Origin: Candidatus Latescibacterota bacterium
GTDB taxonomy: Bacteria; Latescibacterota; UBA2968; GCA-2709665
Reading direction: 5' to 3'
Length of the DNA stretch: 64,000 nt
Assembly: GCA_965219455.1 (NCBI GenBank)
Contig: OZ244744.1
Span: forward strand, 5,088,001 to 5,152,000
The translations under genes were made by a program, and so were the position numbers. Below, piece after piece: positions 1,525-55,743 of this stretch (its first letter is position 1; each line of letters opens with the position of its first letter). The notes below the pieces were generated by a model that did no database searches, was not told where the DNA came from, and saw only the letters and a program-made list of their open reading frames with translations.

Positions 1525-2664
1525 TCATTGCGCCCCAACCTCCATGAAGAACCTTCTTTCCCCATCCCGAATAGTCAATATCGCCGTACTCTTGGTCGGA
1601 TGTCGGTTTTCATCATACCGCGCGATCTGAGTCGCTCCCCGGTAATCTTGCGTTGCCGTTAGCTGGTTCCGGACCACCTCTCCCTCAAAACTTCTCGCCC
1701 GTTCTACCGCCTCAGAGAGTACCCATACAGCGTCATAACTAACTGCATCCCCACCGCTGGGGGTACGTTGGTATGCGGCCACGTACGCCTCTACGAACAT
1801 CCTCGCGCCAGGTTCGGTTGACTCCGCGGAGAAGTGTCCGCTAAAGAAACTTCCTTCGACCTCGGCCAGTACCGCATCCAGAAACAACGGATTGTCCCAA
1901 GCATCAGCGCCCAGGAGGACTACAGGTGTGCCCTGGGCGTTCAGCACGGGAGCAGTTCTCGTTTCCCGGACCACGTGGGTCATATCCGAGACCAAGCCCG
2001 AAATAAAGAATACATCCGGTTCGGCTTTGGAGATCCGCCCAAGCTGTTCTGTAAAGGTGGTATCGCCGCCAGAGAAAACCTCGTTTGCGACGACCGTCCC
2101 GCCGAGCTCAGTGAAATGGGAAACAAAGAACATTGAAATACCTTCAGTATATACATCACCCTCTAGGGTCAGGACCGCCGCTACAGACTTACCCAAATCT
2201 TCCCACGCAAAACGGGCGAGAACCGCGCCCTGGAACTGATCAGTAAAAGCTGCCATAAATACGAAGTGACCCGCCCGCGTCACGTTCGGGTTAGTGGCCC
2301 CGGTCGTTATCATAGGAATCTGTGCCTGCTGAGCAACCGGCCCCACGTGAACCGCGTGGGTTGAGCGGTTGGGGCCGAGGATCGCAAAGACCCGATCATT
2401 CTGGATCATCTGTTGAGCGGCCTGGACCGCTACTGAGGCATCCACAATATTGGTTCGTGTTACCAGTTCGACTGTTCTGTCGAGCAGCCCACCGTTCGTG
2501 TTGATCTCGTCTACAGCCAATGAGGCCGCATCTGCATACGAGGAACGATCGCCGGAGACCAGGAAACCGATTCTTATTGTATCGTTGGAGATCGGGTCCT
2601 GGGACTTGGAACAGGAGAGGGACAGCGAGAGGAGACAGGCGATGTAGAAAAATCGGAAACTCAT
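1525..2664 (-). CDS. Branched-chain amino acid-type ABC substrate-binding lipoprotein (LivJ/Peripla_BP_6 family)
   Basis: Lipobox LSLSC; motifs IRIGFL, AVDEINTNGGLL, ATNPNVT, DQFQGAVLARFA, SYDAV. Confidence 0.9.
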   Translation of the reverse strand: MSFRFFYIACLLSLSLSCSKSQDPISNDTIRIGFLVSGDRSSYADAASLAVDEINTNGGLLDRTVELVTRTNIVDASVAVQAAQQMIQNDRVFAILGPNRSTHAVHVGPVAQQAQIPMITTGATNPNVTRAGHFVFMAAFTDQFQGAVLARFAWEDLGKSVAAVLTLEGDVYTEGISMFFVSHFTELGGTVVANEVFSGGDTTFTEQLGRISKAEPDVFFISGLVSDMTHVVRETRTAPVLNAQGTPVVLLGADAWDNPLFLDAVLAEVEGSFFSGHFSAESTEPGARMFVEAYVAAYQRTPSGGDAVSYDAVWVLSEAVERARSFEGEVVRNQLTATQDYRGATQIARYDENRHPTKSTAILTIRDGERRFFMEVGAQ

Positions 2665-2691
2665 TATATTTTCATTCCACCTATGATTAAT

Positions 2692-3273
2692 TCAATTGTG
2701 TCGTGTGCTGTCGCGCAACCTTCTAACCGCCGACCTACCGCCCGCCAGATCAAACTTGAATGTCCAATCAACAAGGTTCTTTATAAAGGCCCTGGGATCT
2801 TTTGGCATTTCTCTCGGAAAAGAACCCAGGTAAACAGAAAGGGTGTGGTACCGGTTTGATTGTATATCTCTCAGTATGCGTTTAGAAAAATTCGCCGGGA
2901 TCAGAATTATATTCCGGCCATTCTTGGTTTCGGTAAATACCTCAGGAACTACACAAACTCGATCTCTACCTTTCTGTTTACCACTCATTCTAAAAGCCAC
3001 GTCTTGTTGAGAGGATTCAGGGCGTTCGCCAGCTAGAAAACGAGTCTTGGGATACTCAATCGCGACAACGGTGGTTAAAAGTAACAGAGAACAATTTACC
3101 GTGTCACTGTGTCCAAAGTGCCAATTGCGATAAGTGGGTGCAATTTCACCCTTCCGCTCTAATACAGTAAAACCCTCAAACGGTGAACGTACTTGACTTA
3201 TCTGCCAAATAGACGAATAACCCGCCGCGCAACTGCCCAGCATTACCATCAAGATGAGAAAAGATTTCCTCAT
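2692..3273 (-). CDS. Hypothetical secreted protein or lipoprotein
   Basis: Open frame in an AT-richer segment. ATG after GAGG gives a signal-like N-terminus, MRKSFLILMVMLGSC. Confidence 0.6.
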   Translation of the reverse strand: MRKSFLILMVMLGSCAAGYSSIWQISQVRSPFEGFTVLERKGEIAPTYRNWHFGHSDTVNCSLLLLTTVVAIEYPKTRFLAGERPESSQQDVAFRMSGKQKGRDRVCVVPEVFTETKNGRNIILIPANFSKRILRDIQSNRYHTLSVYLGSFPREMPKDPRAFIKNLVDWTFKFDLAGGRSAVRRLRDSTRHN

Positions 3274-3300
3274 AACCTCTATCCACAAGTGCGCGAACAC

Positions 3301-4047
3301 TTATCGTGCTCGAATCTTATCAATCGCGTATTGTGCCATACGTCGATTTAGATATTTTCGACCACCGAACCCGGTTAATGTGTCCTTAGTGGCAATTTGT
3401 CTCAAAATAGGTATGGTTGTCGAATCGCCAAACGTAGCCAAGGCAAAACAATATGTGCCCTTATACACATATCGTTCTAAATTCTCCATAAGCATGCGTC
3501 TTATCAACTTTATCTGTGATTCACTAAACAAAGACGGTTTACTCATGTACATTCTGACCAAAGTGTGACCCGCTGTACCACGTGTACGTAATTGATCATA
3601 TTGTAGGTAAGTTATCACACTGTCAACAGCAGAGTCCATTTTAGCCAAGCCAATGTGCGCAGTCCCAATTGACTTTCGAATCGCCCTTAATAGAATCGAC
3701 TTGGATCCAGGGTCTCCAATCTTACCCAAAAACCCCACCAGGCTAAGGGCGTATTCTCCTTCACATTCACCAGAACGTTCTTCTTTGTCCAGAAGCTGTG
3801 TAAGTTTAGCGTGTACGGCAGGAACAGCCACACGAACAGATTCAATACCTTTCTCTTGTAAGACAATATCCAGACGGGCCATCACACGACTCGAAGCCTG
3901 ACAGTCGCCATGCTCTATGGTATAGAGTTCAACTTGTGTAACGGGGGTTATTGGTATGTGTCCAATTACCGGGTCTGAGAAATGATGATCACCGAAAACT
4001 AACGTTGGGACGAATAATAGATACCACATCACGATAAGTAAACGCAT
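3301..4047 (-). CDS. Secreted hypothetical protein with HEAT-like helical repeats
   Basis: Strong RBS (AGGAGGGG) and signal peptide; HEAT-like segments FLGKIGDPGSKSILL and ALATFGDSTTIPIL. Confidence 0.65.
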   Translation of the reverse strand: MRLLIVMWYLLFVPTLVFGDHHFSDPVIGHIPITPVTQVELYTIEHGDCQASSRVMARLDIVLQEKGIESVRVAVPAVHAKLTQLLDKEERSGECEGEYALSLVGFLGKIGDPGSKSILLRAIRKSIGTAHIGLAKMDSAVDSVITYLQYDQLRTRGTAGHTLVRMYMSKPSLFSESQIKLIRRMLMENLERYVYKGTYCFALATFGDSTTIPILRQIATKDTLTGFGGRKYLNRRMAQYAIDKIRAR

Positions 4048-14860: not shown

Positions 14861-15655
14861 CTATTTGAAATAGGCCCCGGGCGTGCGTTCAACTTCAGCA
14901 ACAAGGGTATCGACGTACGACCTTATCGAGAAGAGCCGGCCTTCGGCATCGCCCACCCGTCCCCGGCTGAGCTTGCCGTTCTCTTCCCAGAACGCGCCCA
15001 GTGCAGTCCGGTTGATCCAGGCATATCTGGCGCGTGGATCGCTTTCGATGCGCCGGTGCCAGCAGAGGACTTCAACGAGGTGAATGTACGTTGAAGACTC
15101 GTAGGTCACGCCCAGCATCACAAGTTTGGCGTCCGACTCATATGCTCTGACCATCGGTGAGTTGTCTCCGTAGGTTTTTCCCCACGGATCGAGGTCCCAG
15201 GGTGAAGAACGCCCTTTTCCGTCGCGATGGCTGTCAACAAACGCCCCGGCGTCTCTGCCTCGGGCGGCGACGGAATGGGAATAGTGGTCGGAGCGATACG
15301 TGTCAGGCATGGTGCGAAAAAACTCGGTGAGCCAACCCACCGTGGACGGGGTTGTTTCCGGGTCCCACGTCTGGGCGCGCAACCGGGTATTGTCCAGGAG
15401 GTTGAACGAGGGCATCAGGATGAGTCCATCCGGATTCGCGGCTTCCTCCAGGGCCCGGACAACCGCGGAAGCACCGCCTTCGACCTGGCCGAGGCTTCTG
15501 AACGAAGAGTGTATGAAAAGGGTATCGCCTGAATCGATACCTAGGTTTCTCAGGTCCCGGCTCAGTGTACCGACCGTGTGCGACCGCAACACGAGATCTT
15601 TCCCTGCGGATGTCAATTCGCCGATTGTTCCCTTGATTATGCAAAATTCTCCCAT
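14861..15655 (-). CDS. AAC(3)/YokD family N-acetyltransferase
   Basis: LGIDSGDTLFIHSS, ILMPSF, RSDHYSHSVAARG, LGVTYESSTYIH. The start codon is uncertain. Confidence 0.88.
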   Translation of the reverse strand: MGEFCIIKGTIGELTSAGKDLVLRSHTVGTLSRDLRNLGIDSGDTLFIHSSFRSLGQVEGGASAVVRALEEAANPDGLILMPSFNLLDNTRLRAQTWDPETTPSTVGWLTEFFRTMPDTYRSDHYSHSVAARGRDAGAFVDSHRDGKGRSSPWDLDPWGKTYGDNSPMVRAYESDAKLVMLGVTYESSTYIHLVEVLCWHRRIESDPRARYAWINRTALGAFWEENGKLSRGRVGDAEGRLFSIRSYVDTLVAEVERTPGAYFK

Positions 15656-15695
15656 GACACGCCGTTCAGGGAGAATTTTGGGATCGAGAACCGGT

Positions 15696-16241
15696 TCAGG
15701 TACGCGTTTCCGCCGGGAACACGGCGGTCTGTACAATTTTGTCGTGCAGCGCCTGTCTGGCGGCGCCAAGGGCGAGGAAGCATCCGATAACGACGATGAC
15801 GCCACCCGCCAAACCGACCACCGTCAGCAGCTGGCTCCCTGTCAGCGCAACAAGGAACGTCGCAACAACCTTGACCTGCTTTACAACCATGCGCAGGATA
15901 AGCGTACCAGTGGCCGCCACCGCGCCGTTTGCGTCTCGGATCTGCATCTTGAGAATCATCTTGCCGGGTGAAGCGCCGGTGAGACCCTCGATCAGACAGT
16001 AGAGGAGTTGAAGAGTGGATACGACCACGCCCACACCCGCCATCAGGCGGGTCAGATCGGAAAGATGGTGCAGGCTCGATCGATCCGAGGTTCCTTTCTC
16101 TCCGGTGATATATTCTGAGATGGACGTCAGGATCCAGATGATGATGAGGTCGATCGCAAATGCCCCGAGCCGTCTGCTGAATCCGATTCTACCGGCTGTG
16201 GCGTCAACCGGGTGGATCTCCGCGGAATAGTCGTCTGCCAT
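15696..16241 (-). CDS. RDD family membrane protein
   Basis: RRLGAFAID, GASPGK, RQALHDKI. Confidence 0.9.
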   Translation of the reverse strand: MADDYSAEIHPVDATAGRIGFSRRLGAFAIDLIIIWILTSISEYITGEKGTSDRSSLHHLSDLTRLMAGVGVVVSTLQLLYCLIEGLTGASPGKMILKMQIRDANGAVAATGTLILRMVVKQVKVVATFLVALTGSQLLTVVGLAGGVIVVIGCFLALGAARQALHDKIVQTAVFPAETRT

Positions 16242-16438: not shown

Positions 16439-17746
16439 TCACCCGTGGATCTCTCGGCGTTTGGAACACTCCGGCGATGGTGTTTCGTCTCGCAGAAGAC
16501 GTCTGATAAAGGTGGGGAGGACAAAAGCAGCTTTGTGAATTTCGTCGTTGTAGTATTGCAGGCCGTGTGCTTCCGAGAATTGGCGGGCGTTCATCGGGTC
16601 GAGGGCGTTCAGCGGATCCACGCACCCCTTTGCGGCATAGGAAAAGCTGAGCAACCCGGTCGTATTCGTGGGGATGCAGGCGAGGTAGCAGTGTACGTTT
16701 GCCAGGCCGAAGACCGACTCCTGGCGCCTGTATATTGTCGCGAAGGTCCGGCTGTTGAGCGTGGGTGGTTCGGTTTGCGCTACCATGACGCCCGCGGGAC
16801 AGAGGCTCTCCAGAACGCGCCGGTAGAATGGTTCCGAGAAAAGGTGCCCGGACCGGCCGGAGGGATTTGCGACGTCGACGATAACGAGATCGAAGGATTC
16901 GGCGGGACAGGTTTGCAGGAAGGCGAAACCGTCGTCAATCTGAAGCGAGAGTCTGGGATCGTCGAAAGCCGGCGCAAGGGCCGGGAAGTACTGCCTGCAG
17001 GCTTTGACAACCGTGGCGTCGAGTTCAACGACGACAACCTGCTCGATCCGCTCGTAACGCATCAATTCCCGGACGGCCCCGCCGTCGCCGCCCCCGATGA
17101 CCAGGGCCCGCTTCGCATCGGGGCGGGTTTGCATGGGTACGTGGACGATCATCTCATGGTAGATGTACTCGTCTTGTTCCGTGCAGGTAACGGCCCCGTC
17201 GATCACCAGCATCTTACCGTATCCGTAGGTGTCGAGGACTTCGATCTTCTGATGGGGCGACTGCTGCTGAAAAAGCGCGCCGGCGTGTCTGAGCGAGAGG
17301 GCGATCTGTTCTTCCCTCCTGGTAAACCAGAGATTGCGGATGTGTACGGAAGGCGCTTCCGAGGCTGCCTGCGCCGGCATTGCGGCGGACTGAGCCTGGG
17401 CGTTGAGGTGTCCGCGGTCAATTTCGCGGGTTGTGCCGTGAGTGGCCTTCAGGTCCGACTTCAGAACTTCGTACGCCGTCCACGGGTTGATCGTGTCGCC
17501 GCAGGTGAACAGGTCGACGGCGGCGAAACCATGCTCGGGCCAGGTGTGGATGGACAGGTGGCTCTCGTGGATGACAACGACGCCGGAGACGCCGTAGGGC
17601 GAGAAACGGTGGAAGGAGGTGTTGATAACTGTGGCGTTCGCCGCGCGAGCCGCGCGAACCATGCACGCTTCAATGCGGATGACGTCGTCCAGTACGGATG
17701 CGGGAGACCCGTAAAGCTCCACCAGAATGTGTCTCCCAAGCGGCAC
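16439..17746 (-). CDS. speD-speE: Fused S-adenosylmethionine decarboxylase (class 1b) and spermidine synthase
   Basis: N-terminal [30 protein letters not shown] (ES autocleavage site). C-terminal [40 protein letters not shown]. Confidence 0.93.
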
Positions 17747-17838: not shown

Positions 17839-20800
17839 TCAGACGCTCTCCCCGGCGGACTGCAGAGTCGACGCCTGGCCCTTCTCGATCAGGACACTGC
17901 CGTCGTTCCTGTATTGAAGCTGGCTTTCTTCCGGGATGGTACGCCAGATGAGAAACTGTTTTCGGATCTGGTTCATAAAGCGCTGGTTGCATCGTTTCCA
18001 CGAGGCAAGGTCGCCCGACAGCCTGTCAATGGTGATTTCGAGGGCGTGGATGCCGAAGGCGCCCGTAGGCGTGGACGACAGGCGGATGGTCTGGCTGACG
18101 CCAAGGTCGAAAGGCGCCAGCCAGATGGTCGTGTCAATCCGATACCCCCGTTCCGTTTCCGCGTCATAGGTGGACAGGTTGGCCCCGTGGGTAAAGAAAG
18201 TGCCCATCGAACTTTCTGTATGAAAGTCGAAGTATTTGGTGAGAAACGTAAACAGCCCCAGGACCTCGTTGCCGGAAATGGTGAACGGAAATTCGAAATG
18301 CCAGCGGTCCGCGTCCGGATCGGGGAGTTTCCAGCGCCGTGTGACATCCGGAACCGCCAGCTGGGAAGCCCGCCGGGCGGGGTAAACGGTGGACAGGATC
18401 ACGACGACCATGACAAGCGTGGAGGATGCCACGGCCGACACGGAGGAATAGTTAACTGTAATGCCCTCCAGAAGCCCCTGCCAGAGAAGAAATTTTGACA
18501 CGCCCTGTGCGAGGAGATAACCGGACACCGCGCCAAGCACCGCGTACACGCAGGACTCGGCCAGGAACAGGAAGGCAATATGTACGGGCGCCAGGCCGAC
18601 CGAGGAATAAATGCCGATTTCCCGGAATCGTTCGTACACCGAACCCATCATCGTGTTCAACACGATGAGGGCCGCAATGGCGATGGGAACAAACAGGTTG
18701 CTCAGGCCCTGCGCCGACGCGTGTCCGAACGAAGAGTAGACGGAAACAGAAATGCGCCCGATCTTTCCCTCCGGCGAGACTTCCGGTATCCCCGCAAAGA
18801 GGACAACGGAGAGCCGCGAGACAAAGCTCTCCACCCGTTCCTTGACCACTGTTGGATCCCGAAACCGCACGGCGACCGCCTGAAGCGGGCTGCTTACCTC
18901 CCTGAGGGTCTGGTATGGGACCACCATAACGTTTGCCGGGTCGAGGTGTTCAAATTCCATGATTTCGACATCGGTCTCTTCCAGGCCGGCTTTCTCCCGC
19001 TTTTCCTGTTGGGCCATCTGCATAAACACGTTCTCATCGGTCAGGACAAAATCCGCGGGCGTGACGGGCTCGCCGTCGAGGTCTTCGAGATCTTTCATGC
19101 GCTCGGCGTCAATCAGTCCGACCACCTTGAAACGCTCTCCAAAAAGGCGTACCTCAGCCTTTCCGACATCGGATTCGCTGATCTTCAGGAGTTCGGCCAT
19201 TGCCTGGGGCAACACGGCGACGTTTCGTTCACCCGGCTGAAACCATCGACCAGCGGACAGGCAGTTTTGAATCCCGATCACTTCGGTCTCCTGCGCGGTC
19301 AGTCCGACAATGCCGAGCGCGTTGGCCGATGCGCTGTCCGATACGACCTGGATGGCCTTTTTCTCCTTGGAAGCGTACCAGCTGCGCGCCGCCACAACGG
19401 CTTCCTTTCCGAAGTTGGCGCGAGCGTAGTCCAGAACCGATTCCTCAAGCGGCGCCCAGTATTTGCTGCGGATAAGCATTCCCGGGTATGTGCCCAGATT
19501 GTCTCGTTTGATCTGGTGATAGCTGAGCTGGGATTTGATCGAGGAGAACGACAACACGGTGAAGGTGAGGAGGACGAGCGTGGAGAAGGTGAGCAGCGTT
19601 CTGAGTTTACGCCTTTTCATATTGGCAATACCCAGATGAAAGGCTGCCAGCGAGGCGGAAATCCGGCCCACGTCCACGTCGTGGATAATGGCGGCCTCCG
19701 TTCGGAGGTTGCGCATCTGACTGTTGAAGCGGGAGAAAACCAGGGTGATGACGAAGGTGGCCAGCGACAGGAGCACAAAGGCGAGGAGAATGACGAAAGG
19801 ATTGGACAGGTCGAATGCAGGATGAACGATGGACAGGAAGATCCAGATGACCAGAAAAATTCCGGCGAAACCGACAGTCTGCCATCGGATGTCCACCGAC
19901 GTAAAAATGAGCCGCTCGCTAAAAAACGCACAGGGAAGAACCAGCGCCATAAAGAAGATGATGCCATGGATCACGTCGTTCTGTGTCCCTTTCACATCCG
20001 GATACGCGCGTGACTCGAGGCCAAGCGCGGCCCGGGAATGCCTCACGAAATCGTCCCATCGCAATTGTTGCCGGGCCGCGTCCGCCCGGTCCAGATGTTC
20101 CCTCGCCCTTTGGTGCAGATCGGTAAGGCGGTCGTTTTCGATTCCGTAGACCTGAAGTTCACGCATCCTGGCGTGGTCCAGGATCCACATGTCTTTAGCG
20201 GCCTGGTAAGCGGTATGCGTGATTGCACCGTGCGTGGAGGCCACAAACCCGCTCTTGCGTGCGGCTTCAACGCTGGTCGTATCGGTTGCATTCAGCAGCA
20301 GGTAGCGGATACCGATACCACGTGTATGCATGGTGATTTTGAGTTTGACGCCGGGGCGTGTGAAAACCACGCCGACCGGTTCGTTGGGGCCGTAACCCAG
20401 GGAATAGCCATATTCCTGCGGGGCGGTGTTCCCGTCGCCGTACAGGGAGAGATTGGGGAGCTTGGTGAGGTAACGCGGATCCACGGTTTCGTAGAAGTCT
20501 GTTGAAACACAGGGAAACATGATGCGCGTGGCGCGGGTAATCCACCAGTCCATTCCGAATTCGGGTTTGTAGATCCGGGCGCTCTGCCCGCGATCCGACG
20601 CGTAGGTGATTTCGCCGCTTTCCGGGTCCAGGTGATACGCGTCCAGGCCGACCCAGCGCACGGCGAGACCGGGAACGTGGAACTCGCCGTTCTCGTCGGC
20701 CTTATCGTAGAATATGGCGCGCACGCCCTTGACGGACTTTTCGTAAGACATTCGCAATACCGCCACCGCTCCCTTGCGCGGCCGGTCCGGGGTCATGCTG

Positions 20801-22377
20801 CGCCGCGGATAGGTGAGCAGGCGCCCTTTCAGGGCGCGCATCCGATCTTTCATCTTGACGCGATAGTCGGGCAGGAACGTCGGCTCGTCGAGCGCTTTGC
20901 TGAGCACCGCGGTAAGCAACCGTATCTGGTTCGTCAGGTTGGTCAGATTGACTTGCTCCACGGTGTCATGGGGTGTATCCACTCTGAAGCGCGCATCGTT
21001 GATGGTCACGAAAGCGAGTGTCGGCATGCCCGCGGTAAGTACGACCTGCGAATCGGTCTTTAATTTTCCGCCCGGAATGAACATGCGCCAACTCATTCCC
21101 GACGGTGGGTTGATACCGTCAACGAGCGACCGCTTTGCGTCCATGCCGAACGCCGGCGCCAGGTCCGCGCCGAGGTTGCTGAAGCGTTTCCCAAACGGCG
21201 TAAAAAAACGCTGGTAGTAGAACGCAGTGGAACCATTCCAGACGGCCATCTGGTCGGTCTGCGAGGAGAGATCCAGGGAAATCCAGAGCCGGATATCGAT
21301 CGGGTCCGTCATCAGGGCCGCGAAGTGTTCCTCTTTTCGGGCATGCCTTCCGAGAAAGTCGCAGACGCCACGAAAACCGAGATGGTGGGCCGACGTGGCC
21401 AGGAAAAGGACGGTGTGAGCGGGCGGATGCGCTTTGAAGTATTCGGCCATTTCAAGCAGGGCGACGATGCCGGATGCCTGCTCGGCGCCGGGGGCGAGCG
21501 CGGGGACCACTGACATGGCGTCGTAATAGGCGTCCACGAGAACCACGCGTTCCCGAAGCTGCGGATCCGTGCCCGTAATCCAGCCAATGATGTTTCGCGT
21601 CGGGTGCGTTTCCCAGTCCATCCGCGCCTTCAATTCCACTTCGATCCGCTCGCCCGCGGCCAGGCGCCGCCGGAGGCGTTCCCCGTCGGACCTGCCGATC
21701 CAGAAACGGGGCGCGTTGAGCGGAACCTGGAAGAACTTCTGTTCTGCTTCGGCCGTTGTGGTGGAGTCCGGAGCGACGAAGATGATTGCCCTGGTGCCCA
21801 GCATGGCGGCATTCATCCAGCGATTCCAGGAGTTGAAATCCATCAGAATGACGCTGCCTTCGGGTTCCTTGCCGTTGAGATCCGCGAAATTGCCGGCGCC
21901 CGCGTCAATAAGCGGGGCTCGCAGTCCGGCGCCCGGCAGCGTGGACGTACGGACCAGGTTGGGCCAGACCGCATGAATAGGTACAATACCGGGTTCGCCC
22001 AGGATGCGGAGGCCGCCGCCCTTGTCTACCGGCGACGTGACGTCGTAGGTTTCCACGGAGACGTTTTCCAGACCCACACGTTTGAACTCTTCTTCTATAT
22101 AGAGAGATGCGGACCTGTGGCCCGGATAGCCCACCACCCGCGAACCCGATCCGCTGAGTCGGAGCAAACGCGATTCGATTTCGGCCGGCGTTATCTCTTC
22201 TCGGATGGTGTCCGCCAGTTCCTGTTGGCCGGTGGCCACCCTGGTGGGCGGCAATTCGGGATAACGGATGTTGAACCAGTCGAACAGGAGGTCGGTGAGC
22301 GCCTGCGGAGAAAAGAGGGTCAAACTGAGAAAAGCAATCAGGATGACCAGGCCGAGGGTGATGTTGTTTGTTTTCAC
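17839..22377 (-). CDS. 1512-aa PA-domain/M28 peptidase-fold ectodomain fused to an FtsX/MacB-like permease
   Basis: N-terminal TM, SRVVGYPG, PA domain, degenerate M28 motifs (AYYD, GAEQASG, SAHH), TM cluster, MKRRKLRTLLT, and the FtsX signature VYERFREIGIYSSVGL...FLAE...YPARRAS. Confidence 0.88.
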   Translation of the reverse strand: MKTNNITLGLVILIAFLSLTLFSPQALTDLLFDWFNIRYPELPPTRVATGQQELADTIREEITPAEIESRLLRLSGSGSRVVGYPGHRSASLYIEEEFKRVGLENVSVETYDVTSPVDKGGGLRILGEPGIVPIHAVWPNLVRTSTLPGAGLRAPLIDAGAGNFADLNGKEPEGSVILMDFNSWNRWMNAAMLGTRAIIFVAPDSTTTAEAEQKFFQVPLNAPRFWIGRSDGERLRRRLAAGERIEVELKARMDWETHPTRNIIGWITGTDPQLRERVVLVDAYYDAMSVVPALAPGAEQASGIVALLEMAEYFKAHPPAHTVLFLATSAHHLGFRGVCDFLGRHARKEEHFAALMTDPIDIRLWISLDLSSQTDQMAVWNGSTAFYYQRFFTPFGKRFSNLGADLAPAFGMDAKRSLVDGINPPSGMSWRMFIPGGKLKTDSQVVLTAGMPTLAFVTINDARFRVDTPHDTVEQVNLTNLTNQIRLLTAVLSKALDEPTFLPDYRVKMKDRMRALKGRLLTYPRRSMTPDRPRKGAVAVLRMSYEKSVKGVRAIFYDKADENGEFHVPGLAVRWVGLDAYHLDPESGEITYASDRGQSARIYKPEFGMDWWITRATRIMFPCVSTDFYETVDPRYLTKLPNLSLYGDGNTAPQEYGYSLGYGPNEPVGVVFTRPGVKLKITMHTRGIGIRYLLLNATDTTSVEAARKSGFVASTHGAITHTAYQAAKDMWILDHARMRELQVYGIENDRLTDLHQRAREHLDRADAARQQLRWDDFVRHSRAALGLESRAYPDVKGTQNDVIHGIIFFMALVLPCAFFSERLIFTSVDIRWQTVGFAGIFLVIWIFLSIVHPAFDLSNPFVILLAFVLLSLATFVITLVFSRFNSQMRNLRTEAAIIHDVDVGRISASLAAFHLGIANMKRRKLRTLLTFSTLVLLTFTVLSFSSIKSQLSYHQIKRDNLGTYPGMLIRSKYWAPLEESVLDYARANFGKEAVVAARSWYASKEKKAIQVVSDSASANALGIVGLTAQETEVIGIQNCLSAGRWFQPGERNVAVLPQAMAELLKISESDVGKAEVRLFGERFKVVGLIDAERMKDLEDLDGEPVTPADFVLTDENVFMQMAQQEKREKAGLEETDVEIMEFEHLDPANVMVVPYQTLREVSSPLQAVAVRFRDPTVVKERVESFVSRLSVVLFAGIPEVSPEGKIGRISVSVYSSFGHASAQGLSNLFVPIAIAALIVLNTMMGSVYERFREIGIYSSVGLAPVHIAFLFLAESCVYAVLGAVSGYLLAQGVSKFLLWQGLLEGITVNYSSVSAVASSTLVMVVVILSTVYPARRASQLAVPDVTRRWKLPDPDADRWHFEFPFTISGNEVLGLFTFLTKYFDFHTESSMGTFFTHGANLSTYDAETERGYRIDTTIWLAPFDLGVSQTIRLSSTPTGAFGIHALEITIDRLSGDLASWKRCNQRFMNQIRKQFLIWRTIPEESQLQYRNDGSVLIEKGQASTLQSAGESV

Positions 22378-22442
22378 AATGAGCCCTGCATCAGGATAAG
22401 GATTTTGGGCGAATCGTTATTTCGACGCCGCGGCGCAGAACG

Positions 22443-24494
22443 TCAGTACCATTTATGAACCACGTGCCCGTCCGGCTGGAACCAGATGGCGTCCACGACA
22501 ACGCCGGCGGCGACGGACAGAATGTAACCCACCAGCATGCCGATGAAGAATGGTCTCGATTTCCGGTAAAAGGCGGCGCCGGCAAGCCTGATCATGGTCA
22601 GTTTGACCAGCCACGCGACAAATATGGTCGCGCTGGTGAGCCGCGAAAGCGCCGTGCCGGACAGGGCGAACCCGATCGGATGGAGCGGCCACCTGACGAA
22701 GCGATACCGCATCAGATTCAAGAAAGCCATGGCGCCGGCGCCGGCAAAAAAGAACCAGTAGTTGACCGGTTCGATGGGGCTGTTGACGGCCTTGATGGAA
22801 TTGGCGATGCCGCGTACCTGCCCGATCCCCGCGCGGATAATCAGCCAGTTGGGTTGTACATTGTACCCGCCAATGGTATAACCGAGCCACACGGTATAAA
22901 GCGTGGAGGTGACCATCCCCACCACGAATGCGGCGGAGATCGCCCAGAACAGTCGCCGTTTGCCCTTTGGCAGGAATTCCGCCAGTCGATTGATATGGGC
23001 CATCGTACCCATGGAGAGGCCCCGATAGTGGTTTACGGCCCGAGAGGAAAGTCCGAGCGCCATTTTGGTGGGCGCGGTATACGTGTGGGAACCACCCAGA
23101 AACCGGCTGACAAGGCCCCACGCCGACGTGGGCGGGTTCAGGTAGACAATACCCGAGTCCGCGAGGATTTTTGCAACGGTGGCATAGACGACGAGCATAC
23201 ACAGGATAAGCAGGACGATCACCTTGACCTGCATGCCGATCCAACCCAGCCACAGCGCCATGTAAAGACATCCCACGACAAGCCCCAACACGGCATGCCG
23301 GCACGATAGTAATTCCTGGCTGTCGTCCGGAGTCGATCGATCCGGGTTGAGGGCCTTCCGGAAGACGTCAAGCAGGTGATGTCTCGCGATCCAGATCGCC
23401 CAGAGAGCAAGGACCGTGAACCCCCCGGCCGTCTGCCAGATGTAACGGCCTCGACCATAGTAGGGTGAGATGGCCGAGACGCCCAATCCGCTCAGGATTC
23501 CGCCCTCGAGAATGAACAAAGCGTCGAAAAACCAGAGGCTGAAGAGGATCTCGAGGCTCGCGAAGTACGAAAAGCAGATGACGACCGCACTCAAAAAGAA
23601 AAAAGCGGGCGGGTAATCGGGAGAGAAAAAGATCCAGCGGGCGGAAGCCGTGGGAAACCGGGGGAACTGGGGATAGAACCATGCAATCATGTTCCAGCCG
23701 AAAACGAACGTGGTGAGCATGAATCCGGCCCAGAACGCCTTGCCTTTCATGAATTCGGGCAACCAGCGTCTGCCGGTTCCGGCCTGCGTGGTGAATTCTA
23801 TGATGGGTTCCATTGCCGGGAAGACGAGGCGCTCGTTTTCGGACCATTGCTTGCGGAAGATGATGGACAGGCAGGCTGCGGCCAGAGCGACGGCGCAGAG
23901 AAACGTGAACCACCAGAAGAGAGGCACGGCCCAGACGCCCCATGGAATGGATGCGCCATGGGGCAGGCCCTCGTAGAACCACGCCATCGCATTGCCTTCG
24001 TTGTCCGGAATCAGCCACCCGGGGAGATACGGGTGAAGGTATCTGGCCCATTCGTTCTCCATGGTGGCGAAATAATGGGGCGCGACCATAACACCCACGA
24101 GGTAACCACTGATCCCGTAGGTGGGCCCCAGAGAACTGATGAAACCCATGCAGAAAATGGTGATCCATTCCGAAGACGAGAAGATAAACCGCCGGCCGAA
24201 CTTGTAGGCAAGCATCGAACAGAGGATGATGGAGACCAGGCTGAGGATCAGATTGCCCATGGGCATATGGCTGTACGCCATAAACGACGCGTGGAGGACG
24301 TAGCGCACCGTGTCGCCCAGAATACCGATGGATACCGAAAGGAAAAGCCCGCAGACGATGGACCTGAAGGTCACGCCGCGATTCCGGATAGTATCCGAAC
24401 CGGAGGACGTGTCGACATCAGATTCCGTCGAGTTCGTGGATCGTATTGACATGGATTGCCGATTTCCCGAAACACGGTTGCGTATGCCCGACAT
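22443..24494 (-). CDS. DUF6785/DUF6784-type polytopic membrane protein (putative transporter)
   Basis: Many TM helices; GVTFRSIVCGL, W..PLFWW, RKQWSENERLVFP, RYRFVRWPLHPIGF, YRKSRPFFIG, recalled as family features. Confidence 0.8.
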   Translation of the reverse strand: MSGIRNRVSGNRQSMSIRSTNSTESDVDTSSGSDTIRNRGVTFRSIVCGLFLSVSIGILGDTVRYVLHASFMAYSHMPMGNLILSLVSIILCSMLAYKFGRRFIFSSSEWITIFCMGFISSLGPTYGISGYLVGVMVAPHYFATMENEWARYLHPYLPGWLIPDNEGNAMAWFYEGLPHGASIPWGVWAVPLFWWFTFLCAVALAAACLSIIFRKQWSENERLVFPAMEPIIEFTTQAGTGRRWLPEFMKGKAFWAGFMLTTFVFGWNMIAWFYPQFPRFPTASARWIFFSPDYPPAFFFLSAVVICFSYFASLEILFSLWFFDALFILEGGILSGLGVSAISPYYGRGRYIWQTAGGFTVLALWAIWIARHHLLDVFRKALNPDRSTPDDSQELLSCRHAVLGLVVGCLYMALWLGWIGMQVKVIVLLILCMLVVYATVAKILADSGIVYLNPPTSAWGLVSRFLGGSHTYTAPTKMALGLSSRAVNHYRGLSMGTMAHINRLAEFLPKGKRRLFWAISAAFVVGMVTSTLYTVWLGYTIGGYNVQPNWLIIRAGIGQVRGIANSIKAVNSPIEPVNYWFFFAGAGAMAFLNLMRYRFVRWPLHPIGFALSGTALSRLTSATIFVAWLVKLTMIRLAGAAFYRKSRPFFIGMLVGYILSVAAGVVVDAIWFQPDGHVVHKWY

Positions 24495-24551
24495 TCAGCG
24501 CGCGGAAAGAGGGCGCCAATCTGTCAGATGAAAGCCCCGGAACCGGTCAGC

Positions 24552-25562
24552 TCAGAAGCGATCAGTTCCCATCACTTCCAGGGGGGCGGTGACCAGAGGG
24601 TTCAGCGCCGTCGCCCTCTGCAGGCACGCGGCGGCCAGGCTGTCTTTCCCCGCCAGACTGTAGAAGTGCGACAGGGTCTGATAGCGTTCCGCCGTCGGGT
24701 TCTCCGCGGCGGTCAGTTCCAGAAAGCGAATACGTCCGGCCAACCTGCTCTGGCGTTCGAAAACATTCAGGTGCCCTTCGGCTTCCAGCTCCTGCCCGAG
24801 AGCCAGCAGGGTTTGTCCCAGCAGATATCGTGTGCGAGGATGAAAGGGATCCAGCGCGACCGCGCGACGGAGGTGGCGTACCCCCAGGTTTGCTCGTTTC
24901 CTCCGGAGTTCGTTCCGGGCGATGTCGCAGAGTAAATCGATATCTTCCCGGTTCTCTTGAAGGGCCTGCCGGAAGCAGGCCGCAGCCGAGTCGAGTTCGC
25001 CGCGGCTGAAGTGAATGCGCCCCAGGCCGGCGTAAATTCCGCCCCGTGCGCCGCCTAGCGATGCGGCGCGCCCGTAATGGCGTTCGGCGTTATCGAGGTT
25101 CCCGGCCGCCACGTAAAGCTCGGCCAACGCCAGGGAAGGCCCGGGATTGTCCGGCATTTCCTCGGCGGCTCTCAAAAAGGCAGCTTCGGCCCGCTCGTCC
25201 GCCCGGGCATCTCGAAGGGCGCGCGCGTATTCCATCCATTCTCGGGGGCCCGACACGAGGGGCGAAATCGCCATCAGGGTTTCCGTCGCTTCGGCAAACC
25301 GTCGGCGTCCGGTCAGGAGGGCCGCCAGACCAAACCGGGCACGGACGGATTCAGGGTGAACGGCGATGGCTTCACGGTAGGACGCCATTGCAGATTCGTC
25401 GTCTCCGTGTCTCAACGCGGTCTCGGCGCCGTCGCACAGATTGACCGCCCGCTGTTCCGGCGTCCCGGATGCCGGCCGGAAACAGACGACTGCCAGCGCC
25501 ACCAGAAGGAACGCGGCAAGCGGCCTATAGTTTCGTACCACAGTGTCGACAATAGTTCGCAT
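24552..25562 (-). CDS. Secreted tetratricopeptide repeat protein
   Basis: Signal-like N-terminus and multiple TPRs (YREAIAVHP, LGRIHFSRGELDSA, RRAVALDP). Confidence 0.85.
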   Translation of the reverse strand: MRTIVDTVVRNYRPLAAFLLVALAVVCFRPASGTPEQRAVNLCDGAETALRHGDDESAMASYREAIAVHPESVRARFGLAALLTGRRRFAEATETLMAISPLVSGPREWMEYARALRDARADERAEAAFLRAAEEMPDNPGPSLALAELYVAAGNLDNAERHYGRAASLGGARGGIYAGLGRIHFSRGELDSAAACFRQALQENREDIDLLCDIARNELRRKRANLGVRHLRRAVALDPFHPRTRYLLGQTLLALGQELEAEGHLNVFERQSRLAGRIRFLELTAAENPTAERYQTLSHFYSLAGKDSLAAACLQRATALNPLVTAPLEVMGTDRF

Positions 25563-26355
25563 CGGCCTCCAGGGTCTCGGCGTTGCATCCTGAACAGGAC
25601 CGGGTGGCGACCCGGTCTTTCATGGCCTGCGAGATTTCGACCGAAAGGATGCCCGTGGGCACGGCGATGATGCTGTACCCCAGCATCATGACAACGACCG
25701 CAAGAGCCTGGCCAGGCGCGGTTTTGGGAGAAATATCGCCGTATCCCACGGTCGTGAGGGTGACGACGGCCCAGTAGATGCTGCGGGGGATGCTGGTAAA
25801 GCCGTTTTCGGGTTTTTCTATCACGTACATCAGTGAGCCCAGGATGACAACGGCAGTCATCACGGTGACCGTGAAAACCGCGATTTTTCGGTGGCTCGAC
25901 CGGATCGCCCGGACCATAATTCGGGCCGCTCGGAGGTACTGCACCAGTTTAAGTATGCGAAACACGCGCAGTACACGGAGGATACGGATGACCACGAGGT
26001 ACTGGCTGCCCGGCAGGAGCAGACTGATATACGTGGGAATGATGGCAAGCAGGTCCACGATGCCGAAGAAGGAAGACGCATAACGCAGGGGGCGGCCGAC
26101 GCATATCAGCCGCATGATGTACTCGATGGTGAAGAGGAGCGTAAAAAACCATTCGAGACCGTACAACAGGTCGCCGTGGGTCTCCCGCACAGCGGCGATG
26201 CTGTCCAGCATCACGGTCAGTACACTCAGAATGATGCTGGCAATAAGCAGGACGTCGAACCTGTTGCCCGCCGGAGTGTCTGATTCAAATATGATATTCC
26301 GAAGACGCCGACGCCATCCTGAAACCGGATGAGCGCTTCTTTTTCCGTAGGCCAT
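25525..26355 (-). CDS. Voltage-gated potassium channel (ion transporter) with C-terminal zinc ribbon
   Basis: S4 RILRVLRVFRILK, pore TTVGYGD, CxxC..CxxC tail. Confidence 0.93.
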   Translation of the reverse strand: MAYGKRSAHPVSGWRRRLRNIIFESDTPAGNRFDVLLIASIILSVLTVMLDSIAAVRETHGDLLYGLEWFFTLLFTIEYIMRLICVGRPLRYASSFFGIVDLLAIIPTYISLLLPGSQYLVVIRILRVLRVFRILKLVQYLRAARIMVRAIRSSHRKIAVFTVTVMTAVVILGSLMYVIEKPENGFTSIPRSIYWAVVTLTTVGYGDISPKTAPGQALAVVVMMLGYSIIAVPTGILSVEISQAMKDRVATRSCSGCNAETLEADANYCRHCGTKL

Positions 26356-26505
26356 ATGCAATTGAGGATCTATTGCCCCGTGATTGCCGCCGGACTCGCA
26401 AATCTTACGCCGCAACCGGAACCTTATCCGCAGGCAGGTATGTCCGGTATCCGGCTTGCGGGCGACCGTGGTCGCAGGCGGGCTCACCCGGGAGGTCGCG
26501 CTCTG

Positions 26506-54089: not shown

Positions 54090-55034
54090 ATGATCCGTGT
54101 GGAAAATCTTGTCAAGGATTACGGTGACGTCCGGGCCGTTCGGGATATCAGTTTCCAGGTTAACGATGGAGAGATTCTGGGATTTCTGGGCGAGAACGGG
54201 GCTGGTAAGTCAACCACGCTGAAGGTGATGACGGGGTATCTATCGGCAACCGCCGGCAACGTGTTCGTGGACGACATGAACATTGTGGACGATTCCCTGG
54301 AGATCCGCAAGCGGGTGGGGTACCTGCCCGAATTGAATCCGCTCTACGGTGAAATGATCGTTTACGACCTGTTTTCGTTTATTGCGACGATCAGACGCAT
54401 GGAAGGGCGGGCGTTCCGTCAGGCGTTGGAGCGGGTTGTCGAGCAGTGCGGGCTTGCCGGCGTGGTTCACAGGGCGGTGCAGGAGTGTTCCAAGGGGTAT
54501 AAACAGCGGATCGGCCTGGCAACGGCCATGCTGCACGATCCGGATATCCTGATTCTGGACGAACCGGTGACGGGGCTGGATCCCAACCAGATTGTGGAGA
54601 TCCGCGAGTTGATCCGGTCTCTCGGGCGTGAGAAGACACTGATCATGTCAAGCCACATCCTGCAGGAAATTGAAGCGACGGTGGACCGAATCATCATCAT
54701 TCACAATGGACAGATTGTGGCGGACGGCCTGCGGGAGGAGCTGATGTCCAGCTTCCGGGGACAGACGCAGTTGACGCTGGAGGTCAAACGGGCCGAAGAC
54801 GAGAGCGTGCAGGGGCTGCCCGAACAGTTGCAGGGGGTCGCGCTTTCCGGCATGGCCGAGAACAATGGGTCCCGAACGCTCTTACTGGAATACGACCGCG
54901 ACACGGATCCCCGGGAGCGCATTTTTCAATATGCCAGGGACCAGGGATGGGTGATTCTGGAAATGAGCCAGGCTCGGGTTCAGCTGGAGGACGTATTCAG
55001 GAATCTCACCGGGGAGGGGACGTCCGATGCGTAA
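54090..55034 (+). CDS. ABC transporter ATP-binding protein (GldA-like)
   Basis: GENGAGKST, SKGYKQR, ILDEP..GLDPNQI, SSHIL. Confidence 0.95.
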   Translation: MIRVENLVKDYGDVRAVRDISFQVNDGEILGFLGENGAGKSTTLKVMTGYLSATAGNVFVDDMNIVDDSLEIRKRVGYLPELNPLYGEMIVYDLFSFIATIRRMEGRAFRQALERVVEQCGLAGVVHRAVQECSKGYKQRIGLATAMLHDPDILILDEPVTGLDPNQIVEIRELIRSLGREKTLIMSSHILQEIEATVDRIIIIHNGQIVADGLREELMSSFRGQTQLTLEVKRAEDESVQGLPEQLQGVALSGMAENNGSRTLLLEYDRDTDPRERIFQYARDQGWVILEMSQARVQLEDVFRNLTGEGTSDA

Positions 55035-55740
55035 TGTGAAGGCGATCTATCTGAAAGAACTGCGTTCCTATTTCAATAGCCCTATGGCCTACATTTTTCT
55101 GGTGATTTTCGCGGTCTTGAGCGGATACTTTTTCACGAGTACATTCTTCCTTATCGGACAGTCCGATATGCGCGCCCTGTTTAACATCGTACCGCTGGTC
55201 TACCTGTTTTTCGTGCCGGCCATTTCCATGGGACTGATCGCGAAGGAGAAGAACCTGGGAACCATGGAAGTGTTGTCTACCATGCCCATCCGGGACGTCG
55301 AATTCGTCGCGGGCAAATACCTGGCGGCGGTAAGCCTGATCGTGGTGGGGCTGCTCTTTACGTTCGTGCATTTTCTCACGCTCCTGGCCGTGGGCACTCA
55401 CGTGGATATCGGCGCGGTGATAACGGGATACGTGGGCCTCGTCCTCGTGGGCGCATTTTACGCGGCCGTGGGTACGTTTGCCAGCAGCCTGACGGAAAAC
55501 CAGGTGGTTTCATTGATTGTCGCGATCGCAATTGTCATGGTGTTTTTCCTGCTGGACAAGCTGCTGCTCTTCATACCCGCGGGGCTGTCGGCAATTGCGC
55601 AATATATCAGTGTGGACTACCACCTGTCGAATATTGCACGGGGCGTCGTGGATTCCAGGAATCTTATCTATTTCGCGGGGATGATCTGGTTGTTTCTGGC
55701 GCTCACCCTGCGGGTTCTGGAGATGAGAAAGTGGAGGTAG
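55027..55740 (+). CDS. ABC-2 type permease (GldF-like)
   Basis: KELRSYFNSPMAY, EKNLGTME, SSLTENQ; 6 TM. Confidence 0.92.
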   Translation: MRNVKAIYLKELRSYFNSPMAYIFLVIFAVLSGYFFTSTFFLIGQSDMRALFNIVPLVYLFFVPAISMGLIAKEKNLGTMEVLSTMPIRDVEFVAGKYLAAVSLIVVGLLFTFVHFLTLLAVGTHVDIGAVITGYVGLVLVGAFYAAVGTFASSLTENQVVSLIVAIAIVMVFFLLDKLLLFIPAGLSAIAQYISVDYHLSNIARGVVDSRNLIYFAGMIWLFLALTLRVLEMRKWR

Positions 55741-55743
55741 TCG

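Follow-up and report, generated by a model that had tools for sequence, protein, structure and literature searches.

A pseudo-peptidase FtsX-type protein and an OPT-fold permease encoded side by side in Candidatus Latescibacterota: a possible envelope system with its ATPase encoded elsewhere

Type VII ATP-binding cassette (ABC) systems, among them MacB, LolCDE, FtsEX, YtrEF, HrtBA, YbbAP, and BceAB, are built around an FtsX module of four transmembrane (TM) segments, with a periplasmic domain between TM1 and TM2 and a motif of the form ER-x-REIG. The coupling helix and residues of the N-terminal helix of such permeases dock the ATPase, and in FtsEX with EnvC or PcsB a hydrolase-like ecto-domain comes under ATP control. 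The OPT/YSL (oligopeptide transporter/yellow stripe-like) proteins (TC 2.A.67, PF03169) are importers. Here we describe a locus at which an FtsX-type protein and a permease of predicted OPT fold are encoded as neighbors. It lies in 64,000 nucleotides of a Candidatus Latescibacterota bacterium (contig OZ244744.1, positions 5,088,001-5,152,000; referred to as the window), and comprises genes for a tetratricopeptide repeat (TPR) protein, a polytopic membrane protein with the domains DUF6785 and DUF6784, and a 1512-residue protein, referred to simply as the giant, that joins an M28 peptidase-like head to an FtsX module. Our preferred reading, held with moderate confidence, is that the locus is an ATPase-unlinked, derived paralogue of an envelope system that runs on a type VII (MacB/LolCDE/FtsEX-like) motor encoded in trans.

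Genes were called with a greedy longest-open-reading-frame (ORF) script and the products assigned by Pfam. All three genes are on the minus strand: that for the TPR protein (336 aa) at 24552-25562, that for the DUF6785/DUF6784 protein (683 aa) at 22443-24494, and that for the giant, which has a GTG start, at 17839-22377. The intergenic gaps are 57 nt (TPR to DUF6785) and 65 nt (DUF6785 to giant). A sequence-only reading of the window had listed three co-oriented genes about 60 nt apart, encoding a TPR protein, a 683-residue many-TM protein, and a 1512-residue giant; its coordinates were exact, and Pfam and hydropathy confirmed the three types of product. A promoter/terminator scan, from which nothing decisive came, gave no terminator-like site between the three genes.

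The giant matched Peptidase_M28 (PF04389, 2.7e-10, residues 262-486) and FtsX (PF02687, 6.2e-14, residues 1230-1339). Hydropathy, supported over residues 780-1512 by an AlphaFold2 (AF2) model, gave one N-terminal TM segment, a cluster of segments at about 800-890, and the TM segments of FtsX. Five regions follow one another along the chain. The head, with a protease-associated (PA) insert in an M28-like fold, spans residues ~60-500 (20878-22200) and is defined by its alignments to 2ek8, YwaD (6hc6), leucyl aminopeptidase, and Nicalin. Residues ~501-795 (19993-20877) are extracytoplasmic and found no match in Pfam or in the PDB sequence search. An extra bundle of three TM helices (residues ~796-890; 19708-19992), seen both in hydropathy and in the AF2 model, leads to the type VII ABC permease module (18352-19707), which was recognized by Pfam FtsX, by PDB sequence matches, and by Foldseek. 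The chain ends in a cytoplasmic C-tail domain (residues 1343-1512; 17842-18351), delimited from the AF2 model. Unlike the known type VII proteins, the giant thus has a PA/M28-like head of ~790 aa and a 3-TM bundle before FtsX, and a cytoplasmic tail of 170 aa after it.

The C-terminal half (residues 780-1512) was modeled by AF2 from 34 sequences, with a pLDDT (predicted local distance difference test) of 75.2 and a pTM (predicted template modeling score) of 0.49. The 3-TM bundle is formed by helices 16-45, 51-72, and 81-112 of this model, and the chain returns to the cytoplasm before the FtsX module begins. Foldseek matched the model to MacB (best 2.5e-12), Spr0694-0695, LolCDE, HrtBA, YtrEF, YbbAP, and BceAB, and also to the isolated periplasmic domains of MacB/LolE, 3ftj (TM-score 0.56 on the target), 5c59, 5udf, and 5f9q. 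A sequence profile of the four giants of this genome likewise matched YtrF, MacB, LolC, and LolF, and MacB_PCD (PF12704) was detected in two relatives of the giant (P0128 and P0066). The giant has one FtsX domain. The order within the permease module is an amphipathic N-helix, TM1, the MacB-like periplasmic domain, TM2, the coupling-helix motif YERFREIGIYSSVGLAP, TM3, and TM4; the 4-TM module, the TM1-TM2 periplasmic domain, and the ER-x-REIG motif are therefore common to the giant and the type VII systems. In alignments, the coupling helix falls on the corresponding stretch of YtrF and MacB. Its motif, E-R-x-x-E-I-G...G-L-x-P, and the residues of the N-helix were invariant in 34/34 diverse giants, including those of types not linked to an ATPase.

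The C-tail (170 residues) is modeled by AF2 as a beta-sheet with two long helices. An Atlas look-up returned no usable match for it. When the tail itself was used as a query, it matched 1422 cluster representatives at E <= 0.001, 998 of them at <= 1e-10, and it mostly lies at the C-terminus of proteins of ~1450-1900 aa. It is thus a marker of the giant family. Among orthologues of the window giant, the FtsX module and C-tail are kept at 89-91% identity.

The best sequence matches of the head, PA insert included, are active PA-M28 aminopeptidases: that of Aneurinibacillus (2ek8), YwaD of Bacillus subtilis (6hc6), and the Vibrio leucyl aminopeptidase (1amp). In an alignment of the four paralogous giants, profile positions 70-352 aligned to 2ek8 with an E-value of 1.1e-13. 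We mapped five of the M28 positions that we take to be metal-ligand or catalytic; the fourth ligand, an Asp, lies outside the mapped set. The position of the first His is occupied in the giant by Tyr285, that of the bridging Asp by Glu299, that of the catalytic Glu by His331, and that of the ligand Glu by His332, which is replaced by Phe or Gln in the paralogues. The last His corresponds to Asp467 through a second alignment stretch that is not significant by itself. Where the aminopeptidases have the di-zinc set His, Asp, Glu-Glu, His, the giants thus have Tyr, Glu, His-His/Phe/Gln, Asp, and the alignments indicate that the head is not a canonical aminopeptidase. The sequence-only reading had called it receptor-like, and this is supported, since every mapped metal-ligand or catalytic position is replaced. 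Tyr285, Asp286, Glu299, His331, and Asp467 are invariant across the four giants of the genome. As the residues that replace the M28 site are themselves invariant, a remodeled binding site in the head is possible.

The combination of replaced metal and catalytic residues with membrane attachment recalls the non-catalytic PA/M28-fold proteins Nicalin and transferrin receptor. After (A/Y)YDA, the giants and Nicalin have an insertion of 4 residues in common, which the active aminopeptidases lack. Nicalin and transferrin receptor are eukaryotic, however, and have no FtsX module, and the similarity is weak (E 0.0019-0.0056 for Nicalin). A hydrolase-like ecto-domain on an FtsX-type protein also recalls FtsEX with EnvC or PcsB. 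Heads are decorated differently across lineages: three relatives of 2100-2800 aa (P0009, P0066, P0112) carry extra N-terminal Big_5 or LysM domains.

For the 683-aa protein, Pfam gave DUF6785 (3.2e-98, residues 42-542) and DUF6784 (9.8e-20, residues 580-670), with bit scores of 329.9 and 71.1 that are both above the cut-offs of 25 and 26.4. These were its only Pfam families, with no sequence match to PF03169. A DUF6785 profile made from 17 members matched no PDB sequence at E <= 10, and so a link to OPT transporters could be drawn only by comparison of folds. The AF2 model, built from 17 sequences (pLDDT 82.2, pTM 0.85), matched a single protein at E <= 0.001 in Foldseek, the barley transporter HvYS1 (7wst, 2.4e-8; 7wsr, 5.3e-8; probability 1.0, TM-score 0.57-0.67). 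The DUF6785 protein is therefore predicted to have the OPT/YSL fold and to be a secondary transporter, and the earlier suggestion of an OPT-like transporter holds, the protein being many-TM with HvYS1 as its only significant structural match. The fold is common to both, whereas in sequence the DUF6785/DUF6784 pair is separate from PF03169. The DUF6785 gene is, moreover, tied to that of an FtsX-type protein; we know of no characterized OPT member with such a genetic tie.

The proposed coupling of the giant to the DUF6785 permease is supported by gene order in relatives and by one natural fusion. The metagenome scan used nine diverse giants as seeds and hidden Markov models (HMMs) built from few sequences; the lists hold the best 80 matches and are biased toward the queries, and many of the metagenome loci are truncated. 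Within these bounds, DUF6785 was directly upstream of the giant in 57/75 evaluable genome loci and in 19/51 evaluable metagenome loci. The adjacency recurs in distant lineages, at 39-60% identity and in differing surroundings. A search with the C-tail found P0128, a protein of 2120 aa that contains MacB_PCD, FtsX, the tail, DUF6785, and DUF6784 in one chain. Its topology fits, for the cytoplasmic tail is joined to the N-terminus of the permease, which is probably cytoplasmic as well. When the longer DUF6785 proteins were searched for fusions, only P0004 (1329 aa, DUF6785 and DUF6784, without a giant part) was found.

The giant has a second recurrent partner, a polytopic protein of 684-806 aa without a Pfam family, which we call Partner2. 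It is encoded directly downstream of the giant in 50/57 evaluable metagenome loci. Partner2 aligned with DUF6785 by hhalign (68.6%, E 4.6e-5, 310 columns). Its nearest Atlas clusters are partly annotated as OPT (score 0.98, with PF03169 in 15-33% of members), which serves as a lead only.

No ABC ATPase is encoded next to the three genes. The genome has 73 matches to PF00005, one of which is inside the window: the product of 54090-55034, a GldA-like protein (4.3e-101) whose gene precedes those of GldF- and GldG-like proteins. The sequence-only reading had assigned the sole ATPase of the window to a Gld-like operon, and this is confirmed; in the flanks examined, the 17 orthologous loci have no ABC ATPase either. 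It may be noted that this GldA-, GldF-, GldG-like ABC-2 operon (54090-57246, plus strand) scores under the NCBIfam equivalog cut-offs for all three genes.

The further idea of a system without any ATPase is not supported, because operons of relatives hold a second, small FtsX protein together with an ATPase of the LolD/FtsE/MacB group. In L087 and L090, whose giants are 45-46% identical to that of the window, the order is giant-Partner2-small FtsX-ATPase, with two further genes after Partner2 in L087. The phylum of L090 is represented by nine closely related genomes, which are not an independent sample. In the metagenomes, small FtsX and ATPase genes were downstream of the giant in 10 of the 34 loci for which 6.5 kb or more of downstream sequence was available, and a small FtsX gene was present in 12/80 loci overall. 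Usually, two more genes lie between Partner2 and small FtsX. One encodes a protein of ~300 aa with no Pfam family (Y300) and the other a PqqD-family protein (PF05402; 9.5e-10 and 2.8e-13 among operon members). The complete operon giant-Partner2-Y300-PqqD-small FtsX-ATPase was found in L174 and L175, from the Latescibacterota genomes G008 and G026, each of which has one match to the giant C-half. In its full form, the operon thus reads (DUF6785)-giant-Partner2-Y300-PqqD-small FtsX-ATPase.

The gene content differs from that of known type VII systems: in place of a MacA adaptor, a LolA-type carrier, or a peptidoglycan hydrolase, the giant has permeases of OPT fold, the ~300-aa Y300, and a PqqD-like protein as partners. 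In the complete operons there is no space for a further gene such as a MacA/HlyD-type adaptor, although the loci were not all scanned with an adaptor HMM. The sequence-only reading had taken the routine presence of an ABC ATPase in homologous loci as the sign of an ordinary MacAB-type system. Some operons of relatives do hold such an ATPase, but the system is not an ordinary MacAB one, because there is no room for the adaptor gene.

In this genome, the same parts are encoded away from the window. A search with the giant found one non-giant match, the small FtsX protein g3268 (238 aa, 4 TM), which carries a matching coupling-helix motif. Its gene forms a single-copy pair with that of g3269, a LolD/FtsE-type ATPase, at L092:7138-8649. 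The proteins in L087 and L090 are 47-51% identical to g3268 (small FtsX) and 76-77% identical to g3269 (ATPase). Orthologues of Y300 (L173:5634-6674) and of the PqqD-family protein (L173:6714-7139; PF05402, 9.5e-10) are also single-copy. A second ATPase, g437 (L009:3579-4367), is of LolD/FtsE/MacB type (LolD, 7.2e-68), has g3269 as its closest paralogue in the genome (4.1e-95), and its gene precedes that of the closest paralogue of the window giant by 2.8 kb, with no other FtsX gene nearby. Genes of the g437 type lie 1.9-7.4 kb upstream of a giant in 16/79 genome loci. Like those in the operons of relatives, the ATPases of this genome belong to the LolD/FtsE/MacB group. Hence, the ATPase that the window locus lacks most likely has its gene at another place in this genome.

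Other assignments were considered for these genes. That small FtsX and its ATPase are the cell-division FtsEX is not favored, as the FtsX models score far under their cut-offs, the periplasmic loop is of only ~45 residues, and one entire family of the phylum does not have the pair. Directly upstream of the pair lies a gene for an S41 C-terminal processing peptidase (Ctp) (L092:5359-8649 for the group; G000:C1:3848359-3851649), and likewise in a genome of another family (G070, L179); a link of Ctp to the motor is possible. Between g437 and its giant lies a tRNA-Phe gene (L009:4872-4947, minus strand), where naive ORF calling gives spurious ORFs of 89 and 80 aa.

The giant C-half was found in 154/168 genomes of the phylum, and the observation at the window is therefore not a matter of chance. 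Small FtsX was found in 148/168 genomes, always as one copy, and Y300 in 116/125 genomes of at least 90% completeness. Family f10 has none of the three (0/13 genomes for the giant and small FtsX, 0/8 for Y300). Giant and small FtsX occur together in 147 genomes and are both absent from 13, all of family f10; seven genomes (60-89% complete) have only the giant, and one (57% complete) has only small FtsX. The linkages of Y300 tie the parts of the system together: in family f4 (G106, G101, and G133 among others), a giant precedes it by ~2.5 kb, and it adjoins small FtsX in G008, G026, and G030.

The FtsX part of the giant and small FtsX were also subjected to complex prediction. The ipSAE score was 0.39 (0.36-0.39 between runs) against 0.00 for the best of three controls; contacts agreed by at least 79%, and the pLDDT of the partners was at least 67. 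The mark applied here is reached by 58/80 solved complexes and by 2/110 mismatched pairs; scores of at most 0.60 were obtained for only 7 of the 80 solved complexes and for both mismatched pairs that pass. The prediction lends weak support to a complex of giant and small FtsX, and the likeness to solved LolCE/MacB dimers may explain why it passes. Such a pair would resemble the LolC/LolE heterodimer.

The genome is a single contig of 5.84 Mb with four full-length giants (100, 58, 39, and 38% identical to the window giant) and 23 DUF6785 genes. Each giant has its own gene arrangement: TPR-DUF6785-giant in the window; DUF6785-giant-Partner2 in L009, with the ATPase gene upstream, beyond the opposite-strand tRNA-Phe; DUF6785-giant-DUF6785 in L010; and giant-Partner2 in L011. 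A tree of 163 giant C-halves was made with FastTree and rooted at the midpoint, leaving out giants of < 1300 aa or < 1400 bits. The root has motor-linked loci on either side. Clades with the order DUF6785-giant-Partner2 enclose the window-type clade, whose sister group keeps Partner2, with a TPR gene downstream of it (L021, L065). The window locus is therefore a derived form from which Partner2 was lost.

The order TPR-DUF6785-giant was found at 17 genome loci, two of which read TPR-DUF6785-giant-DUF6785-giant, with 73-91% identity of the giants; a TPR homologue is also directly upstream of DUF6785-giant in L120 and L124. The TPR gene is specific to the window-type sub-family of loci. Its 336-aa product matched many TPR families (TPR_19, 6.8e-20) and has a single N-terminal hydrophobic segment by hydropathy, from which it is probably exported or membrane-anchored.

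The 23 DUF6785/DUF6784 paralogues are of about 654-703 aa, and most of them do not adjoin giants (for example, L001-L008 and L181-L200). Of 20 scanned genes that neighbor other DUF6785 paralogues, the majority have products with catabolic or binding roles. Among these are heparinase II/III-like proteins (two), GHL10- and GH130-like proteins, amidohydrolases, an S8 subtilase, gamma-glutamyltranspeptidase, oxidoreductases, and a solute-binding protein; FG-GAP proteins also occur beside the paralogues. Nutrient import fits these surroundings, as the paralogues adjoin catabolic enzymes, and DUF6785 may be a main nutrient-uptake family of the lineage. For one paralogue (L012:4735-7546; G000:C1:5761735-5764546), the next gene, 10 nt downstream, encodes an ABC ATPase, with no permease gene evident beside it. 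This ATPase was rejected as the missing motor, being of the nitrate/taurine/SaoA importer type.

On the architecture, folds, gene linkage, phyletic pattern, and single fusion described above, we propose the following scheme. The full system would consist of the giant, a small 4-TM FtsX, one or more LolD/FtsE-type ATPases, one or two permeases of OPT/YSL fold (DUF6785 and Partner2), and cytoplasmic Y300 and PqqD-like proteins. In this genome, expansion would have produced four giants and 23 DUF6785 genes, with motor and helper genes kept as single copies elsewhere, and the window copy would have lost Partner2 and gained the TPR protein. The window giant would pair in the membrane with small FtsX. 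ATP hydrolysis by the trans-encoded ATPases would pass via the coupling helices to the MacB-like domain and the head, the head would capture or release an extracytoplasmic oligomer (a peptide, a glycan fragment, or a metal chelate), and the adjoining OPT-fold permease would then move the oligomer across the membrane. The motor would be common to all giant/permease pairs, each of which would act on it as a substrate-specific head. We infer the use of the ATPase in trans, the heterodimer, the uptake direction, and the class of substrate; for the last two, we draw on the catabolic contexts of the paralogues and on the roles of the OPT and type VII families. More tentatively, and with clear doubt, we suggest that the system may be a hybrid of primary and secondary transporter of an undescribed kind, with a shared type VII motor and interchangeable giants, each paired and sometimes fused with an OPT-fold permease. 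In such a hybrid, an ATP-driven pseudo-peptidase head would gate or load proton-driven uptake of oligomers, and the invariant Tyr, Glu, His, and Asp residues would form a pocket for a ligand or a metal chelate.

Several results weigh against a motor that acts in trans. Unlike the known type VII systems, the window locus has no ATPase or second FtsX gene nearby. No ABC ATPase, small FtsX, Partner2, Y300, or PqqD gene was present in the examined flanks of the 17 TPR-DUF6785-giant loci. Co-transcription of g437 with the DUF6785-giant operon was rejected, as the tRNA-Phe gene between them is on the opposite strand. In the metagenomes, 20/30 evaluable loci with Partner2 had no motor genes nearby. 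The phyletic match amounts to about one loss or gain, that in family f10, among related genomes, and is thus consistent with a link without being strong statistics. The predicted complex of giant and small FtsX is weak and does not settle binding, and one small FtsX to four giants requires either shared use or homodimers of giants. The kinship of Partner2 with DUF6785 is modest and otherwise rests on the Atlas leads. As to direction, export or extraction, and not import, is the usual task of known type VII ABC systems, and PqqD-like domains serve to bind peptides in peptide-maturation pathways; both are compatible with export as well as with import.

From the same results, one may argue that the window module has dispensed with ATP, the giant serving the OPT-fold transporter passively, as a receptor or scaffold, the TPR protein replacing the lost parts, and the proton gradient alone driving transport. 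The bare flanks of the orthologous loci, the derived position of a clade that lost Partner2, the ratio of four giants to one small FtsX gene, and a head without canonical catalytic residues all agree with this. It would leave unexplained why the coupling-helix and N-helix residues that dock an ATPase are as invariant in the window clade as in ATPase-linked ones, why the complete FtsX module and C-tail have been so closely kept, and why the genome has motor genes that share the distribution of the giants; we therefore think it unlikely. An equally unlikely alternative keeps the ABC complex and reverses its direction, so that it would export, extract, or mature a peptide or envelope component, the PqqD-like protein binding the cargo, the OPT-fold protein serving as conduit, and the head handing the cargo on or anchoring it. 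Here the solved relatives MacB, LolCDE, HrtBA, BceAB, and YbbAP, all exporters or extractors, and the PqqD-family protein of the full operon are in its favor, as are the LysM or immunoglobulin-like domains on the heads of some relatives, which point to envelope contact. The complete operons are, however, filled by the seven known parts and contain no gene for a precursor peptide or a modifying enzyme, OPT/YSL proteins are importers, and other DUF6785 paralogues lie in catabolic loci.

That the giant is a sensing device, reporting a ligand or the activity of the transporter to a regulator in the manner of the BceAB flux sensor, is improbable. BceAB is among the structural matches, and a receptor-like head with a conserved cytoplasmic tail would suit a sensor, but no histidine kinase or regulator gene recurred in 159 loci searched with a limited set of eight models, and the recurring partners are permease-like. 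Least probable of all is that the three genes are neighbors by synteny alone. Close relatives share a whole syntenic block of nine co-directional genes (unknown-HEAT-unknown-ion channel-TPR-DUF6785-giant-SpeDE-acetyltransferase), and local conservation at the window therefore adds little. Chance adjacency is nevertheless disfavored by the DUF6785-giant pairing in distant lineages with other surroundings, and by the fusion P0128. Compared with the sequence-only reading as a whole, the preferred reading of a trans-encoded type VII motor thus retains the OPT-like transporter, its coupling to the giant, the receptor-like head, and the lack of a local ATPase, but not the ATPase-less system.

The genes around the three are also kept in relatives. 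Directly downstream of the giant, at 16439-17746 (minus strand), a single ORF of 435 aa encodes AdoMet_dc (S-adenosylmethionine decarboxylase) fused to spermidine synthase (SpeDE); this fusion gene is syntenic in every window-type orthologue and is followed by a terminator-like hairpin at 16402-16388. Further on, at 14861-15805 (minus strand), lies a gene for an aminoglycoside 3-N-acetyltransferase-family protein (Antibiotic_NAT, 6.1e-41), syntenic in relatives. Upstream of the TPR gene, and kept in orthologues, a gene at 25525-26487 (minus strand) encodes a voltage-gated-type ion channel (Ion_trans and Ion_trans_2, by Pfam) with a C-terminal zinc-ribbon. The 3' end of the channel gene overlaps the start of the TPR gene by 38 nt, and the two may therefore be co-transcribed. 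Positions 2001-4000 of the window have a G+C content of 0.473, compared with about 0.56-0.62 in the remainder.

The window stretch or part of it was contained in 20 sequencing-run entries, two of which are on record as RNA and are labeled sponge metagenome. Contigs from the RNA-record runs partly cover the genes for the giant and the TPR protein, in some cases with 0 mismatches, and contigs from two runs that are only guessed to be RNA also cover the DUF6785 gene. None of the listed contig pieces from RNA runs bridges a gene junction, and carry-over of DNA is possible. The contigs thus attest presence in RNA libraries, which is not proof of transcription.

In the full-text literature, no mention was found of DUF6785, DUF6784, PF20581, or PF20580, and a search on any two of FtsX, PqqD, and M28 found nothing related. 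The text of the Latescibacterota genome papers PMC12993501 and PMC4454575 does not mention FtsX, MacB, or OPT; the supplementary transporter table of PMC12993501 may list such genes. We found no literature description of an FtsX-OPT system. The family is large and unstudied, and relatives of the giant occur in many metagenomes. For annotation, the locus is a caution that an ATPase not encoded nearby does not mean that there is no ATPase. If the preferred reading is true, a MacB/FtsX-type motor works with OPT-fold secondary transporters, two classes that have so far been studied separately, and several paralogous partners, each substrate-specific and encoded at a distance, would share one motor. 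The 23 DUF6785 permeases may be a main route of nutrient uptake for such uncultured bacteria.

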